This document shows positions 18,001 to 24,000 of a stretch of DNA of 64,000 nucleotides, in pieces. The DNA is from Escherichia coli (GTDB lineage: Bacteria; Pseudomonadota; Gammaproteobacteria; Enterobacterales; Enterobacteriaceae): NCBI RefSeq assembly GCF_030013205.1, contig NZ_CP122649.1. One strand, written 5' to 3'. Position 1 is the stretch's first letter. Each line of letters starts with the position of its first letter. The position numbers were made by a program.

Positions 18001-21000
18001 CGGGAAAACAAAAAACCGCCACAAGGGCGGAATTTATTAGACGGGAAAGATTTGGTTATACGGTATGTGTCAGGGAGGAAGCAATGAGCCTGTCTGGTAA
18101 CAGTGATTGTAGGGACGCAGACGAAATAACAAGCACCTGATCCAAGTGCGCTACACCTTCGTCGATATGTTGCTGGAATGCCGCTTCAGCTTCACCGCAG
18201 GAGTCCGCTTCGACCAGCATCACCTCTTCCTCATCATCAAACATCATGCGGCCTGAGATAATATACAGTCGGCTTAAGTCTGGGGTATTTACAGCGATGC
18301 CCTGTTAGTTAATCATCATTTTTCTCCGCCTTCAATTTTTAAATTTGTCAGTTCTGCTACGTGTAAAAAACAGCATCAGCCCTGTAAACCCGGACAGGTA
18401 TCAACGTAGCTCATTGGTTTGCCGATCGCGGCGCTCAGGCGAAGGATTTCGCCGATGGAGACGTACCGAAGCATTTCCGAACGCCCGTGTTTCTGGTATT
18501 CATCCACCGACATAGTGCGCCAGTCCTTGTGCGGTGCGGTTTTGCACAACTGCCAGTTGTTGGCAGTGGTCGGGCGACGCAGGACATATACACCCAGCGA
18601 AGGCGTGAGGCCACTGCCGAATGCCTGCTCCACCACAATACGTACTTCAGAGCCGTCGGGGCGTTTCAGTGTCTGAGTAATTTTAGTAATGAGCTGTTCG
18701 GATTCCATACTATTAACCTCGACCGTCAGTTGGGTTGCTGTAGGGATATTTTACCAAAGTCGGCTCTCTGGCTAATAAGTAAGAAGTGATTTTTTTCATT
18801 CATTGAAGTTTCTTTCATATGGAATGAATATTAATTATTTAAACTGACTCGGCCTATTTTAATTATTATTAATCAGGGTATTTAATGTGCAAATTGGCAG
18901 GGCGCTGAATTACCGGGCATCCATTGCCCGGACAGTTTATTAAAAAAACTGATAATGCCCCGCCGGAGAATTACGCCAATTCCTGTGAAGGCATGGTCTG
19001 GCTGAAAAGTTACTTTTCCCGGTTGCCCTGCCTTGATCCCGTATCGTTTATACCGGTCTGCTCTTACATCCTACCTGGGCAGCAGCTGGCTACGGTGATC
19101 GGGTATTAAAATAGAACCGGTCTGTTTTACCGCAGATTCAACGCCCCGCACCTAGCGTAAAATCGCCTTTCCCGGATGCCCTCCTTAGTCGTCCGGCACG
19201 ATGGCGCTACTCCCAGCGATAAGGGGTAAAATAGTCCTCGTTAACAGCAAGAAATTCGGTCAGGGAATGCATCGCCTTCGTGTCATATGCCGTCACAATA
19301 AAACGGTATCCGTCCACCGTTTCGATGTAGCTGATCCCCCGTGGCGTGCAACTGGATTTCACAACTTCCGCCGTCATCATAAACTGCCCTTGCGGAAATT
19401 CCGGTGACAGGTAGATAAAGCCAGTGGTGGCTGATGACGGGTTGGCATTCATCAGCACGCCGTTAAATTGCTTTCCGTGCCGCGCCGGAATCAACGCGCT
19501 CCCCGCTGTCGCCTGAGTCATCAACTGGCGGATCAGGGTTTCCTCTTTATCTGAGCTGTAGGCGCGAACATCATTTTCAGCCCCGGAGCGTGAGTAGACG
19601 CCGACATGAGCAAGACGTCGGTACTCGTTACGCATATAGGCATGACAGGATGCACCGGCTCGCCCCTGAAGAGTGACGCCAAAGTCTTCACATAACATCA
19701 GTACCTGGCGCAGGTTTTTGTCATAGACCGTGGCAGAGAGCGCCAGGTTATAGCTGATGAATGTCAGCTCAAAAACCCGGGTATGTGCGTCACTAAGGTG
19801 TGCCTCCATGCGGATCACTGGTTTCTCCGTCATTGGAAACGGCGTACCGGCCAAGCAGTACGAGGTAACATCGCTAAAACACTCGTCGATCACACTGGCA
19901 ATGACCGTATCGGCGTCAATGACAGCCGGAGCTGGAACATAAATCTGAAACTGTCCTTCAGTGCCCGGTTGGATCAGGACGGGGTATAGACGCGGGGAAT
20001 TGAGTTGTTCGCAGTCGGCATTGATCAGTTCTGTCCAACCGGGTTTTCCGGTGGGAGCATCAAGGCGAAGACCCAGGTTATCGCAGAAGTCGACGATCTG
20101 GCGGGAGTGCTCCACCATCACTGCCCCGGAGAGTGTCAGACCGTGCGTAACCATCTGCATCTCACTCGTCCGGGTCTGGGAGTTCTGGGACCAGGGCTGT
20201 AATGAAAGCGTCGTCCGACTTAAGGAGGGAATGATGGTTTCATTCAGAGGTTCAATAAGCTGGCAATGCGCATACAGCCGGGTGGCGAGGAAGTCAAATA
20301 TGAAGCTTGCCTGTTGTTTTGTGCTGGCCTGAATATAAAACATCGCATCCATGCCTGAATCCCGGGATGAAATACCGAAAAGTTTCATTTTTTACCTTAA
20401 TGGATGAGCGATTTATAATCATGCGCCGACAGGTGGACGTTATGTACGCCATCGTTCCACTCAAAGAATAGCCGATATTTTGAATTAACTCGAATGGAAG
20501 AATACCGGTTTGCGGTCATTCTTAAGCGTTCGTACCGCAAACTACCAGATAACAATTCGCGTTCGTTTTTAACATTATTTAACGTTTCCAGTCTGCATGA
20601 AATCGCATTAATCAGTTCAGCAGGAATGCCTGCCGTGGATTTTCCATTACGGAAAAACTTTTCCAATCGCCTGTCTTTAAATGAATGGATCATATTTTCC
20701 TCCGTAACGAAATGAGTTTAAATAAATAAGAATTAAAAAAGCCTGAATCTAATTTATTACATCCCGAGGATTCTGGCTGCGACCGTCAGTTGTTTATCAC
20801 TTAATGGAAATTTGCGTGATAACGTCGACTTCAGGCTGTTCAAAAAACTGTTCTCGCCGTCTTGCTGCGTGATGGCGTCCACCAGTTCTTGGTGGTTCTG
20901 ACACCAGAGGTTGAACGCGGAAGTCTTTGATTGAACAGCACGTTGACGCTCTGCTGCCTGAGCGGCTGAGATCTTGCGAGCAGCTTCTGGGTATATGCGA

Positions 21001-24000
21001 TACAGTGCAGTCAGGGTGTAACAGGTACGGGTAGTGACCAGGCTATAGCCAGTGGCATTACAGGCAATACAGCGGCTCTTATAAAAGTGATTGCGTTCGC
21101 CACGTCCATTGCATTTATTGCAAGTAACACGGTAAATATATTCCCCGGTGCCTTTTACTGAATCAATACACTTAATCTTAGCGTTATCGATTGCCATTCC
21201 GCTACGGTCAAAGTATTTATCCATTTTTGATTCCTCAGGTTTGGTCTGAAGTAATAATGACAGATTGGCCTCGCTGGCTAATAACCTGAACGAACGTTTT
21301 TTGAAAATAAATCAGGAAGGATGATTGAGATGATTTATATATGCAGGATTCAATTTTAATGGAGGGTATTTTCAGAATTATCTGTTTACAAAAAACGAAA
21401 CAAATCCTAATGAGGCATTTATTGCATCACAATAAAAGTGATTGCTTTTCACTCATTTGAGTAGCGATGCTTAAGTATTTATCCGTTTTAAGGTATAACA
21501 GCAGCGTGATACGGCTCAGGGAATGCCTGTCCGTCACCTTAATGATGCTTTACTTCCGGTTGCCGAAACAGTCCATATGGCTGACATGTATAACACGCAC
21601 GGTCTAACGCAGTTCCGGGGGGTGGCACAGCGGCGTGATGCCGCTTTAATCTGGAAAACGCAGGCATCTACTGGTGCCTCAGGATCGCGGCACTCGCAAG
21701 CTGAAACACCAGAGCCTGTTCGTCTTCCGGCTGTATCGCTCGTCCCCGTCTACAAAACCCGTCTCATCCGCAGGTATCGCTGGCGCACTCCCAGACGGTT
21801 AGAGGCTTTCGGGAACTGCCTGGGTCAAAGAACACCGGCGTTCAGGTAGCTGTTGAAATGGACATCTACACGTTTTTGTTCAAGTGATTCAGTTGTGGTG
21901 AGGGCATAACGGGTAATGCCCTCCCGTGAAGCCCTGAGAAAAGTTACTTTTCCAGGATTAATGCAGTCTTGCTTTTAATATAAATTCAGGGGATATTTTT
22001 TTAAAAAAATACCTGTCGTCAACTTATTAGAAAAGTAAGTCAAAATGCTAGAGTGTTCTCATTCAAAAAGAGGAGAACTAACCATGCCAAAATATTTGTT
22101 ACCTGCCGAGCTTGCGGAAATTGTTTGTGGATTACTGGTGCAACCAGCATTATTGAATGAATTAAAAACACCAGCCACGCATAAAGCATTTATGCAGGAC
22201 ATCGGCGAGCTGGTGGCGAAACATTGCGGCGGTCAAATTGACGGCGTGATCATGCCTGAGGTACGCGATGAAGACAGCCAGGCCGATTACCTGACATCTC
22301 CAGATGAAACCCCTTATATTGTTGTCTCTCCTGGCCAGGACATGCACTCCCTCACAGATAACGTCTGGCGTCATCATGCCCGGGATGGCTGGCTTGACCA
22401 TATCAAAGGCAGTGTCGAAGAAAGCCCTGATGAACTGCCGACCCACAAAGAGTGCGCTGTACGCCGCTACACCCTCCAGCGTCTGCTCCTTCAGGAAGAA
22501 ACCAGCCATGCTAATCTGCCAGTACAGGTGGTACGGATGTGTGAGTACAGCACCGACGATGTTGAGCAGACCGATTCTTCAGCAGAGTTTAACGTCACAA
22601 TGGCGCTCGGTGGTCATGCCATGCTGGCAGTAAAAGATACAGATTCCCGTCTGGTGATGGCCCTGACACTCTTGATTGAAAATGGAGTTCCCTCTGTCCA
22701 CGTTAATGCGGGTGACACTGATCCTTCAGTTCTGCACATCCGGGCAGCTCACGGTGGTCTGGTTCTTTCAACCGACTCCCTTAATCATGATTTCAGTATT
22801 TCGCCCTCTGACCAGTATACCTACGGACGCCCTGGATTATTATTGAAAGCCGCCTACTGATTTATTAATTCAAAATCCGTCATTATTATTTACCCCCATT
22901 TTTCGCCCCTAACTTATGGGGCGAGTATATTTTAAAAAACTTTCTTTCAGGTTATTAGCCAGCAAACTAGAACTGGTAGAATTAATTCATCAGAGAAAAG
23001 GGGACTATCATGGCTAAATTAATTTCGACGCGTGAACTGGCAACAATTATTACTGCATTACTGGTAAAACCAGAATTACTGGGCGAGCTGGATTCCCCAG
23101 AAAAACATCGCGCCCTGATGGAAGATCTGGGGCGTGTTGTGGCAGAGCATTGTGGCGGTAATGTCACTGAAATCGCACTACCGGAGACCGATGGTACGGC
23201 TGCTGAAGGCGCGTTGCAGAATGGCCAGCCCGTCCGCTATCTGGAAACCAAAGAAAGCTCTCCGTATCTCATCGTACACCCTGACGCCTCACTGCCGTCG
23301 GTGACGCAAAACGTCTGGATGCACGCTGATCATGATGGCTGGGAAGAGCATTTCAACGGAGAGACCGATGCCCTGACTCCAGAGATGAGCGAGCAGTTCC
23401 GCCAGCAGGTTTATGCACTGCTGACGCCGGAATCCCATACCACCTCTTCAGAAATGAGACTGACTTTGCAGGACTGGCAACTGGGTGAAGCCGAGATCCC
23501 AGAAGAAGACTGTCAGCCCTACCAGGTGAAGGTGTTAGCAGAAAATAAAAACGTTCAGTGCGAAGTGACGAATGAAACCGGCACCACGTGTTTCGGCCTC
23601 ATTTTGGAGATCGACCGTGGTGTACCGACGCTGCACATTGATACGGGCAGTGATTCACTGCTGCACATTCACGCGGCACATGACGGCCTGGTTCTGACAC
23701 CGGATGCACCGAGCCACAGATTTGAAGATGCTCCTGTAGATCGCTTTTCTTATAACAGCCCGTCCCTGTTGGTGCCTGGGGTGTAACCAGGCAAACTGCC
23801 CAGCGGTATTTTGGCCCCGGGTAAAATTATTCAGAACAGGAGTCAGGCAGATGGGCGATGTTGCCACACTACCACCGAAAATTAACGATGGCGTACTTCG
23901 ACGCTGGAATGCTCGCGGTAAAGCGGATAAAGAGGCGCTGGCCGACTATGGCGTTAGCGTGAAGGAGGAGTGAATTGCGCGAATTACTTGGAATGGCAGG

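Follow-up and report, generated by a model that had tools for sequence, protein, structure and literature searches.

Organisation and plasmid setting of the locus

The window, a stretch of 64,000 nucleotides, was identified as part of a pHCM1-like IncHI1 plasmid. Three genes follow one another on its minus strand, on which all features described below lie: a gene for a 155-amino-acid zinc-ribbon protein at the head of the conserved block (20757..21224), a gene for a 98-amino-acid HigB-like protein (20397..20693) and a gene for a 393-amino-acid protein, the candidate partner or antitoxin (19207..20388). The ORF call reproduced exactly the three reading frames and coordinates that a sequence-only reading of this DNA had given. 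A spacer of 63 nt (20694..20756) separates the zinc-finger gene from higB, and the gene for the 393-amino-acid protein begins 8 nt downstream of the toxin gene, as had been stated. This gap (20389..20396), between the higB stop codon (20397-20399) and the next ATG (20388), holds the ribosome-binding site of the large gene, and the TAAGG Shine-Dalgarno sequence overlaps the stop codon. The promoter of the block is presumed to lie in an AT-rich region 5' of the zinc-finger gene (21225..21480); a sigma-70 consensus scan of this region gave no minus-strand site, and its sequence varies between diverged loci without conservation.

The block was found in about 1,300 of 72,556 PLSDB plasmids, and the carriers are IncHI1/IncHI2 plasmids. 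The counts for the single genes were 1,297 plasmids for the toxin gene, 1,303 for the large gene and 1,299 for the zinc-finger gene at an identity of at least 60%. The block stays intact even where identity of the large protein falls to 32–39%, and dN/dS values indicate purifying selection on all three genes. In six diverged cassettes the order of toxin gene and large gene is kept while neighbouring genes are rearranged, and in the loci compared the large gene always lies directly downstream of the HigB-like gene. The gap between the two measures 7–15 nt and contains a Shine-Dalgarno sequence in loci L002, L003, L004 and L007. Both the order of the genes and their close coupling are conserved.

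The HigB-like protein

The 98-amino-acid protein had been proposed to be HigB-like, and profile searches bore this out over its full length, with an i-Evalue of 3.8e-16 for Pfam PF05015 (HigB-like_toxin; query residues 4–90, model positions 2–90 of 91). It also matched PHROG 3066 ('toxin of TA system', E=1.8e-18) and, with residues 1–83, the solved HigB of P. vulgaris (4mct_B, E=3.1e-5); further PDB matches were 4ypb, 4px8 and 5ixl. These matches place the protein, which is basic (pI 10.0), in the HigB family of the RelE fold. By homology it is predicted to be a ribosome-dependent mRNA endonuclease, and it may accordingly be toxic. Its gene is the most conserved of the block, with 57–90% identity and dN/dS of 0.03–0.17; out to 77% identity the values of 0.03–0.09 correspond to very strong purifying selection.

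The catalytic residues of P. vulgaris HigB are His54, Asp90, Tyr91 and His92 (PMC5027501). They align with E55, D92, Y93 and K94, so that two of the four are changed (H54 to E and H92 to K), and the last residue of the protein is H98. Among the IncHI1/IncHI2 cassettes Y93 is invariant, and D92 and E55 each occur in five of six (E55 is replaced by K in L007). R74 and H91 are invariant in all eight members of the clade; a sister clade keeps neither Y93 nor E55.

The two replacements would fit a weak or domesticated protein, for instance an RNase with a regulatory role or a factor that binds RNA or ribosomes; such a protein would need no antitoxin, and its gene would be co-transcribed with its two neighbours as plasmid backbone with some other shared role. 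The sister clade ends in ...LTAHAHA and has lost the D-Y-H motif, natural plasmids tolerate disruption of the downstream gene, and searches of the block and the plasmid found no recognised antitoxin of any family, all of which would agree with such a role. However, the strength of selection on the 98-amino-acid protein and the tight toxin-partner coupling, kept across all diverged cassettes, speak against it, and active sites of RelE-family toxins are known to vary. Residues compatible with a YoeB-like site remain, namely R74 and H91 in the clade and Y93 and E55 in the cassettes. From knowledge of RelE-family active sites, we take E55/R74/H91/Y93 to be a possible catalytic set of this kind, and a domesticated protein is regarded as quite improbable.

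Absence of HigA

No HigA gene was found adjacent to the toxin gene or annotated anywhere on the near-identical 217-kb plasmid NZ_CP122645.1. An HMM made from three plasmid proteins annotated as HigA and run against 3,270 six-frame ORFs of the window and the related plasmid returned nothing (best E=2.1). HigA is absent, and the earlier statement that the toxin gene has no conventional antitoxin holds for its surroundings and for the rest of the plasmid. A missed small antitoxin ORF or an antisense RNA had also been suggested for checking; the locus contained neither a conserved small ORF nor an Rfam RNA nor a repeat array.

The charges of the toxin (pI about 10) and of the acidic large protein encoded next to it are complementary. 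The dN values are 0.059 for the toxin and 0.274 for its partner, so that the toxin evolves about 4–5-fold more slowly, and such rates would fit a toxin-antitoxin pair. Charge, rates and the co-occurrence of the two genes in PLSDB would indirectly support neutralisation of the toxin by the large protein.

The 393-amino-acid protein

The large protein has a pI of 5.3, and values of 5.1–5.6 were obtained for four of five orthologues, the exception being the basic protein of L007 (pI 8.9). It gave no match in Pfam even at E<=10, none in NCBIfam or PADLOC (E<=1 each) and none in PHROGs; nothing significant was found among PDB sequences, where the family profile reached E=0.47 at best. Therefore, no helix-turn-helix (HTH) is detectable in the protein, and the Pfam, NCBIfam and PDB searches agree with the earlier reading that its N-terminus has none. 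The family is small (17 clusters), and dN/dS of the gene is 0.13–0.18.

Some RefSeq records begin the protein at a 381-amino-acid start. The 393-amino-acid start is favoured because an N-terminal MKL(F/Y)G is conserved in 11 of 12 aligned sequences and because the RefSeq annotation of pHCM1 likewise uses it. The twelfth sequence is an entry called from a later start, and its plasmid lineage (L015) encodes the motif in frame. The RefSeq name 'flavin reductase' was rejected, as neither Pfam (E<=10) nor NCBIfam (E<=1) gave such a family and comparisons by sequence, profile and fold brought up no flavin reductase in the PDB.

The protein consists of three domains. Residues 1–250 (19639..20388) comprise an alpha/beta module of ~125 amino acids in tandem duplicate, each copy having a strand-strand-helix unit first and a strand-strand-strand-helix unit second. 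Residues ~280–393 (19210..19551) are the most conserved region and form a C-terminal domain that is confidently modelled as a β/α arrangement of a helix, five strands and two helices. Its fold resembles PH-like or RFTS-like domains at best, and the domain is uncharacterised. Homologues of it also occur as stand-alone small proteins in gene arrays of phages and mobile elements, and these match PHROG families.

A multi-domain partner is unlike the minimal antitoxins, and the stand-alone homologues would be in keeping with a decoy-target or sensor-trigger relationship. It is thus conceivable that the block is an abortive system against phages or plasmids, in which the 393-amino-acid protein restrains the RNase, senses an invader through its C-terminal domain and then releases the toxin. 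Orphan DNA methyltransferase genes (Mrr_N plus N6_N4_Mtase), which are typical of defence and anti-defence neighbourhoods, lie near the block in the diverged cassettes. However, none of the three proteins matched any family in the 5,027 defence models of PADLOC-DB v2 at E<=1, variants that lack the C-terminal domain (L022, L025 and L026) keep the toxin, and plasmid addiction is a simpler account of the same facts. Such a sensing system, which we consider unlikely, would extend the reading as a toxin-antitoxin pair and does not exclude it. A more elaborate form, a three-component immunity or competition system of the plasmid, is speculative and very unlikely: the large protein would be a sensor-antitoxin holding the HigB-type RNase, its C-terminal domain would recognise the stand-alone homologues of phages and rival elements or their binding partners, sensing would free the RNase, and the zinc-ribbon protein would be a nucleic-acid-binding regulator.

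The zinc-ribbon protein

The 155-amino-acid protein carries the motif CxxCxGxG...CxxCxxTG, and all four cysteines are invariant in the orthologues. Its C-terminal half is helical, with a conserved NxF(L/M)xSL...LSxxQ...AxxI motif. It had been described as a zinc-finger protein of the DnaJ-CR type; matches to DnaJ-CR profiles are weak (E=0.018 in Pfam, E=0.001 for the NCBIfam DnaJ model). The protein is basic (pI 9.4, and 9.4–9.7 across orthologues), and dN/dS of its gene is 0.115.

In the 63-nt spacer downstream of the gene, higB has a GGAGG ribosome-binding site, and there is an inverted repeat, rich in AT (20721-20731 and 20748-20758), the second arm of which reaches 2 nt into the zinc-finger stop codon. 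In orthologous loci the spacer measures 30–63 nt, and its sequence is not conserved; the only element kept, in three loci, is ACGGAGG before the ATG.

Distant relatives of the zinc-finger protein ('YuiA family', 27–29% identity) are encoded directly upstream of genes for Ig-like proteins, with no HigB nearby. This suggests that the zinc-finger gene is an older neighbour in the backbone, not a member with which the module was born. The gene order in L003 (zinc-finger gene, higB, large gene, Ig-like gene) compared with that in L027 (zinc-finger gene, Ig-like gene) appears as if higB and the large gene had been inserted as a pair. The zinc-finger protein is possibly a regulator or a mere neighbour.

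Natural disruptions of the large gene

Five independent natural variants were found in which the large gene is broken and both higB and the zinc-finger gene are intact. Insertions lie at codons 4–7 (IS1, L020) and at codons 27–30 (ISVsa5, L021); the protein is interrupted after about residue 158 by IS903B (L026), after about residue 207 by a deletion (L022) and after residue 267 by IS26 (L025). In four of the five HigB does not differ from the common allele, and in L022 it carries a few N-terminal substitutions and E78V. Residues about 77–158 of the large protein are retained in every natural truncation examined. The disruptions fit an antitoxin role of the large protein only if a fragment with residues ~77–158 is still made and suffices, or in the case of a weak toxin. 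The sequence-only reading had suggested a non-canonical toxin-antitoxin pair or a toxin built into a larger system; a conserved unit without HigA stands, whereas in view of these five variants the 393-amino-acid protein is not established as the antitoxin.

Since disruptions coexist with wild-type HigB, the absence of any antitoxin, as weighed above, and the zinc-finger protein as antitoxin stay live alternatives. In the latter case the zinc-ribbon protein would be the real antitoxin, encoded ahead of the toxin as in relBE and parDE, and the 393-amino-acid protein a dispensable accessory (sensor, modulator or effector). Besides being intact in all five variants, the zinc-finger gene adjoins higB in all cassettes of the IncHI1/IncHI2 type, is under purifying selection and falls below 80% coverage in only 2 of 1,850 matching PLSDB records, a number that includes distant YuiA-type relatives, compared with 44 of 1,303 for a large gene that is only about 2.5 times longer. 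In addition, L024, the only locus in which the zinc-finger gene is truncated at its N-terminal end, encodes HigB with R68H, a change at an Arg invariant in all eight clade members. However, the large gene of L024 is also frameshifted, and the locus may simply be decaying. A strongly basic protein, like the toxin itself, would be unusual as a neutralising antitoxin, and the variable spacer, the YuiA-type relatives away from HigB and a sister HigB clade that has no upstream zinc-finger gene all argue against this assignment, which we consider unlikely.

Proposed function and significance

We prefer, at a probability of about one in two, to read the locus as a toxin-antitoxin pair in which the toxin gene comes first, HigA is missing and the large protein acts as neutraliser; the zinc-finger gene would be a neighbour of the pair or its regulator. 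On this view the backbone of IncHI1/IncHI2 conjugative plasmids contains a module built around a HigB-family (RelE-fold) toxin, in which the place of HigA is taken by an acidic protein of 393 amino acids that is unrelated to it, is translationally coupled and has no DNA-binding domain. This protein is probably a new kind of antidote. It would bind and neutralise the basic toxin, probably through its duplicated N-terminal modules, since residues about 77–158 survive in every truncation; we infer both the neutralisation and the domain responsible. Upon loss or degradation of the large protein, the more stable RNase would be freed and arrest translation, with plasmid addiction, abortive defence or both as the outcome. 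As the partner lacks an HTH, transcription would have to be controlled from elsewhere, possibly by the basic zinc-ribbon protein, a putative regulator whose gene lies immediately upstream.

IncHI1/IncHI2 plasmids play a major part in carrying multidrug resistance in typhoid Salmonella, and in E. coli and Enterobacter they are major vehicles of mcr-1 and ESBL genes. So far, the annotation of this conserved part of their backbone is limited to 'RelE/ParE toxin', 'hypothetical' and, misleadingly, 'flavin reductase'. The block could be a maintenance or defence determinant and a target for destabilising IncHI plasmids. If the 393-amino-acid protein is the antidote, it would represent a new family of antitoxins against HigB-type toxins, without a DNA-binding domain.

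Comparison with known systems

Three-gene toxin-antitoxin loci with a separate regulator are represented by omega-epsilon-zeta and paaR2-paaA2-parE2. Like them, the block has a candidate antitoxin without a DNA-binding domain and begins with the gene of a third protein that is small and basic. In the zinc-finger protein neither a recognised DNA-binding fold nor a sequence relationship to Omega or PaaR was found, and its homologues also occur away from HigB. Toxin-antitoxin-chaperone systems (HigB1-HigA1-SecB-like; PMC5105189, PMC8669151) likewise place a HigB-type toxin inside a three-gene locus, but the block has no HigA, it shows no relation to them in gene order or in partner proteins, and none of its three proteins matched a SecB-like chaperone in Pfam or NCBIfam.

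With higBA of Rts1 (Proteus vulgaris) the block shares the Pfam toxin family, an end-to-end alignment with the solved HigB, a plasmid location, the toxin gene in first position and a very short gap. In contrast, its partner is a three-domain protein without HTH instead of a HigA of ~100 amino acids with an Xre-type HTH (Xre/HTH_3), its toxin differs at two of four catalytic residues (PMC5027501), and a conserved zinc-ribbon gene lies upstream. More distant canonical plasmid HigBs (35–37% identity) have HigA immediately downstream.

The nearest relatives of the toxin outside the block are the sister HigB-like proteins of IncHI1B/IncFIB Klebsiella plasmids (41–44% identity), which belong to pairs of the WP_014839961/WP_017901023 type. 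These pairs are also HigA-less and toxin-first, with an acidic partner about 10 nt downstream. This partner has 105–111 amino acids, matches no Pfam or NCBIfam family and is unrelated to the 393-amino-acid protein (hmmsearch E>=0.24); the pairs also differ from the block in having no upstream zinc-finger gene and a toxin C-terminus without the D-Y motif. If the proposed role of the large protein is true, the two arrangements together would point to repeated replacement of the antitoxin inside one toxin clade.

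Organisation and Plasmid Setting of the Block

Three open reading frames on the minus strand were called at exactly the positions proposed by the sequence-only reading, namely, a zinc-finger gene (21224..20757, 155 aa), a HigB-like toxin gene (20693..20397, 98 aa), and a large gene (20388..19207, 393 aa), and its observation of the locus stands. With a probability of roughly one half, we regard this block as a HigA-less, toxin-first pair similar to a toxin-antitoxin module, with the acidic 393-aa protein as the candidate cognate neutraliser. Eight nucleotides separate the higB stop codon from the ATG of the 393-aa gene, and the TAAGG ribosome-binding site of the latter overlaps that stop. 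Some RefSeq records begin the large gene at a later start (381 aa, window 19207-20352, minus strand); the 393-aa start (19207-20388) is favoured by the MKL(F/Y)G N-terminus, which is conserved, and by the annotation of pHCM1. Purifying selection acts on all three genes (dN/dS between IncHI1 and IncHI2 of 0.115 for the zinc finger, 0.034 for the toxin, and 0.131 for the large protein), and the toxin evolves about 4-5 times slower than either neighbour gene.

The block region is 100% identical in the E. coli plasmid NZ_CP122645.1, which bears IncHI-type Trh transfer genes, and the 393-aa protein is 100% identical in pHCM1 of S. Typhi CT18, which identifies the window, as judged by these matches, as a pHCM1/R27-like IncHI1 plasmid. 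The whole block of pHCM1 (NC_003384.1 16895-18912) is identical to that of the window, with the 393-aa gene at 16895-18076, higB at 18085-18381, and the zinc-finger gene at 18445-18912. A ready-made test of the block is thereby at hand, as strain WT26 of the S. Typhi million-mutant TraDIS library carries pHCM1 and its reads were mapped to NC_003384 (PMC7443733, PMC3632133).

In IncHI2 versions, identity is approximately 90% for the toxin, 65% for the zinc finger, and 62% for the large protein. In PLSDB, the toxin was found on 1,297 plasmids (at least 80% identity), the large gene on 1,303, and the zinc-finger gene on 1,299 (at least 60% identity). When genomes of 100,044 species were scanned for peptide patterns specific to the clade, only six further loci came up, all of them enterobacterial and IncHI-type, and no new partner diversity emerged; a search of 5.8 billion proteins returned close relatives of the block proteins and no distant ones. 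On these results, the block is a lineage-restricted yet very widespread plasmid backbone element. Four diverged loci of metagenomic and genomic origin (L002, L003, L004, and L007), in which the large protein is 32-56% identical to that of the window, preserve the order zinc finger, HigB-like toxin, and large protein with gaps of 30-63 nt and then 7-15 nt, and their flanking genes are reshuffled.

Two further features of the region were observed. Two neighbouring genes that diverge from the block (window 22045-22860 and 23010-23786, plus strand) encode acidic paralogues of about 260 aa, and the same pair adjoins the block in an E. hormaechei chromosomal copy (L022 650-2351). An unbroken 809-aa ORF (13976-16405, minus strand), with a PAPS-reductase-family protein as its N-terminal part, is annotated as two overlapping CDS in the near-identical NZ_CP122645.1 and therefore points to a frameshift difference between the plasmids.

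The Toxin and Its Missing HigA

The proposed HigB-like nature of the 98-aa product was confirmed: Pfam PF05015 HigB-like_toxin matches it along its entire length (E=3.8e-16), and it also matches PHROG 3066 'toxin of TA system' and the solved Proteus vulgaris HigB (4mct_B, E=3.1e-5). Critical residues of P. vulgaris HigB are His54, Asp90, Tyr91, and His92 (PMC5027501). The window toxin has Glu55, Asp92, Tyr93, and Lys94 at these positions, with His as its final residue. R74 and H91 are invariant in all eight members of the toxin clade, and among the IncHI1/IncHI2 cassettes Y93 is invariant and E55 occurs in five of six; the sister clade described below keeps neither. From this pattern, the toxin could plausibly have a working active site, possibly of the YoeB type. 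The substitutions at His54 and His92 speak for a rival reading, which we consider quite improbable, of a weakly active or domesticated HigB-like protein with no need of an antidote; the low dN/dS of the toxin speaks against it.

That the toxin lacks a recognisable HigA was borne out, as none is annotated anywhere on the related 217-kb plasmid NZ_CP122645.1, and among 3,270 six-frame ORFs taken from this plasmid and from the window a HigA HMM detected none (best E=2.1). A missed small antitoxin ORF or an antisense RNA, for which the earlier reading had left room, did not come to light: across the diverged loci no small or antisense ORF in or around higB is conserved (the antisense ORF within higB is missing in L002 and L007), and the block yielded no Rfam family, tandem repeat, convincing operator, or terminator. 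The only inverted repeat found there is weak and AT-rich.

Outside the block, the closest relatives of the toxin (41-44% identity) are encoded by HigB-like genes of Klebsiella plasmids of the IncHI1B/IncFIB type; these genes are also without HigA. They are followed, about 10 nt on, by an acidic 105-111-aa protein without a Pfam or NCBIfam match, as seen on IncHI1B/IncFIB plasmids of Klebsiella and Raoultella (L014 2001-3044, L016 1501-2560), which makes a second HigA-less arrangement within one toxin clade. A conventional HigA is found downstream only in the next tier of toxins (35-37% identity), and because both arrangements lack it, the clade has apparently swapped its partner at least twice. 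The 105-111-aa partner was compared with the 393-aa protein and is unrelated to it. The sister toxins end in ...LTAHAHA, without the D-Y-H/K motif, and at L014 and L016 a protein of about 125 aa with a hydrophobic N-terminus follows the 105-111-aa protein.

The 393-aa Protein as Candidate Partner

The large protein had been described as an unknown with no evident HTH, and this proved correct: Pfam (searched up to E<=10), NCBIfam, PADLOC, and PHROGs all lacked a match, and neither the single sequence nor a family profile matched any PDB sequence significantly (best E=0.47). Many RefSeq (PGAP) records label it 'flavin reductase' or 'flavin reductase family protein', a name that comparisons of profiles, sequences, and folds all failed to support. 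An alpha/beta module of about 125 aa is duplicated in tandem across residues 1-250 (hhalign 95.9%, E=6e-9), and residues ~280-393, the best conserved region, are confidently predicted to fold as a helix, five strands, and two helices (pLDDT 93.4, 27-sequence alignment). The pI is 5.3 (5.1-5.6 in four of five orthologues), and that of the toxin is about 10.

On the preferred reading, this acidic protein would neutralise the HigB-like toxin as its cognate partner, with the zinc-finger protein as a neighbour that may provide regulation. It is favoured because of gene order and coupling, charge complementarity, and relative evolutionary rates; the sister clade, with its parallel arrangement, and the zinc-finger family, with its independent distribution, count in the same direction.

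When 1.8 billion representative proteins were searched with a profile, relatives elsewhere were found for the C-terminal domain only, as stand-alone proteins of 113-145 aa, some of which match PHROGs 11960, 2063, and 8840, all without assigned function. Four such genes (130-140 aa; L005 3001-3423, L006 3001-3399, L008 2531-2950, and L009 646-1038) were located, and the stand-alone genes sit in small-ORF arrays on phage- or mobile-element-like contigs. At L008 and L009 the gene is preceded by a conserved acidic 128-aa protein (59% identity between the loci). No HigB-like toxin adjoins the stand-alone proteins, and their neighbours do not resemble the N-terminal modules. An extension of the main model, in which the large protein would be the sensor-antitoxin of an abortive defence system, is given a low likelihood; the phage-like setting of the C-domain relatives is in its favour, and against it stands a PADLOC search that matched the block to no catalogued defence system.

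The Zinc-Finger Protein and Natural Disruptions

The upstream gene had been read as a DnaJ-CR-type zinc finger. The motif CxxCxGxG...CxxCxxTG with four invariant Cys is present, but matches to the DnaJ cysteine-rich domain itself are weak. The protein is basic (pI 9.4-9.7), a charge that points to the binding of nucleic acids more than to neutralisation through charge complementarity. Beyond the block, its sole relatives (27-29% identity) are the 'YuiA family' proteins of Klebsiella plasmids, whose genes immediately precede a large Ig-like (RSP-type) gene and have no HigB with them (L027 2986-6043); the diverged locus L003 (4176-8790) has the order zinc finger, HigB, 393-aa gene, and Ig-like gene. 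From these two arrangements, the simplest history would be that higB and its partner were inserted as a two-gene unit beside an older zinc-finger gene. The IncHI blocks likewise adjoin Ig-like genes, and this shared setting hints that the zinc-finger gene was originally tied to Ig-like conjugation proteins and not to HigB. A second CxxCxGxG-type protein (41905-42612, minus strand, 235 aa; RefSeq 'zinc finger-like domain-containing protein') shows marginal similarity (BLASTP E=0.029) to the 155-aa protein, located in the region of the N-terminal finger.

In five independent variants, the large gene is broken and the zinc-finger gene and HigB are intact, by IS1 at codons 4-7 (L020), ISVsa5 at codons 27-30 (L021), IS903B following residue ~158 (L026), a deletion beyond residue ~207 on an E. 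hormaechei chromosome (L022), or IS26 after residue 267 (L025). Four of them carry the common HigB allele, and L022 has a few N-terminal substitutions and E78V. Residues ~77-158 of the large protein are kept in all five, and the disruptions are compatible with a neutralising region in its N-terminal part. They are equally compatible with the zinc-finger protein as the antidote. The corresponding alternative, with the zinc-finger protein as antitoxin and the large protein in an accessory role, appears unlikely. In its favour, coverage below 80% was seen in 2 of 1,850 PLSDB records matching the zinc-finger gene versus 44 of the 1,303 that match the large gene, and the sole locus with a truncated zinc-finger gene (L024) carries HigB R68H, at an Arg invariant in all eight clade members. 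Against it stand the basic charge of the protein, the occurrence of its relatives without HigB, and a large gene that is frameshifted as well in L024.

Comparison with Known Systems

No experimental description of the block on R27, pHCM1, R478, or IncHI plasmids was found in the literature. By its profile matches the toxin is assigned to the HigB family; the block is not a higBA module, since the defining HigA partner was searched for and is absent, and it differs from TAC systems in having no SecB-like protein. It would function most like a type II toxin-antitoxin locus with a non-DNA-binding antitoxin. With its separate head gene, it may resemble omega-epsilon-zeta or paaR-paaA-parE. That RelE-type toxins mix and match with new antitoxins is already an established theme, and what is distinctive in the block is the large partner, its unusual domain structure, and its presence on about 1,300 sequenced resistance plasmids.
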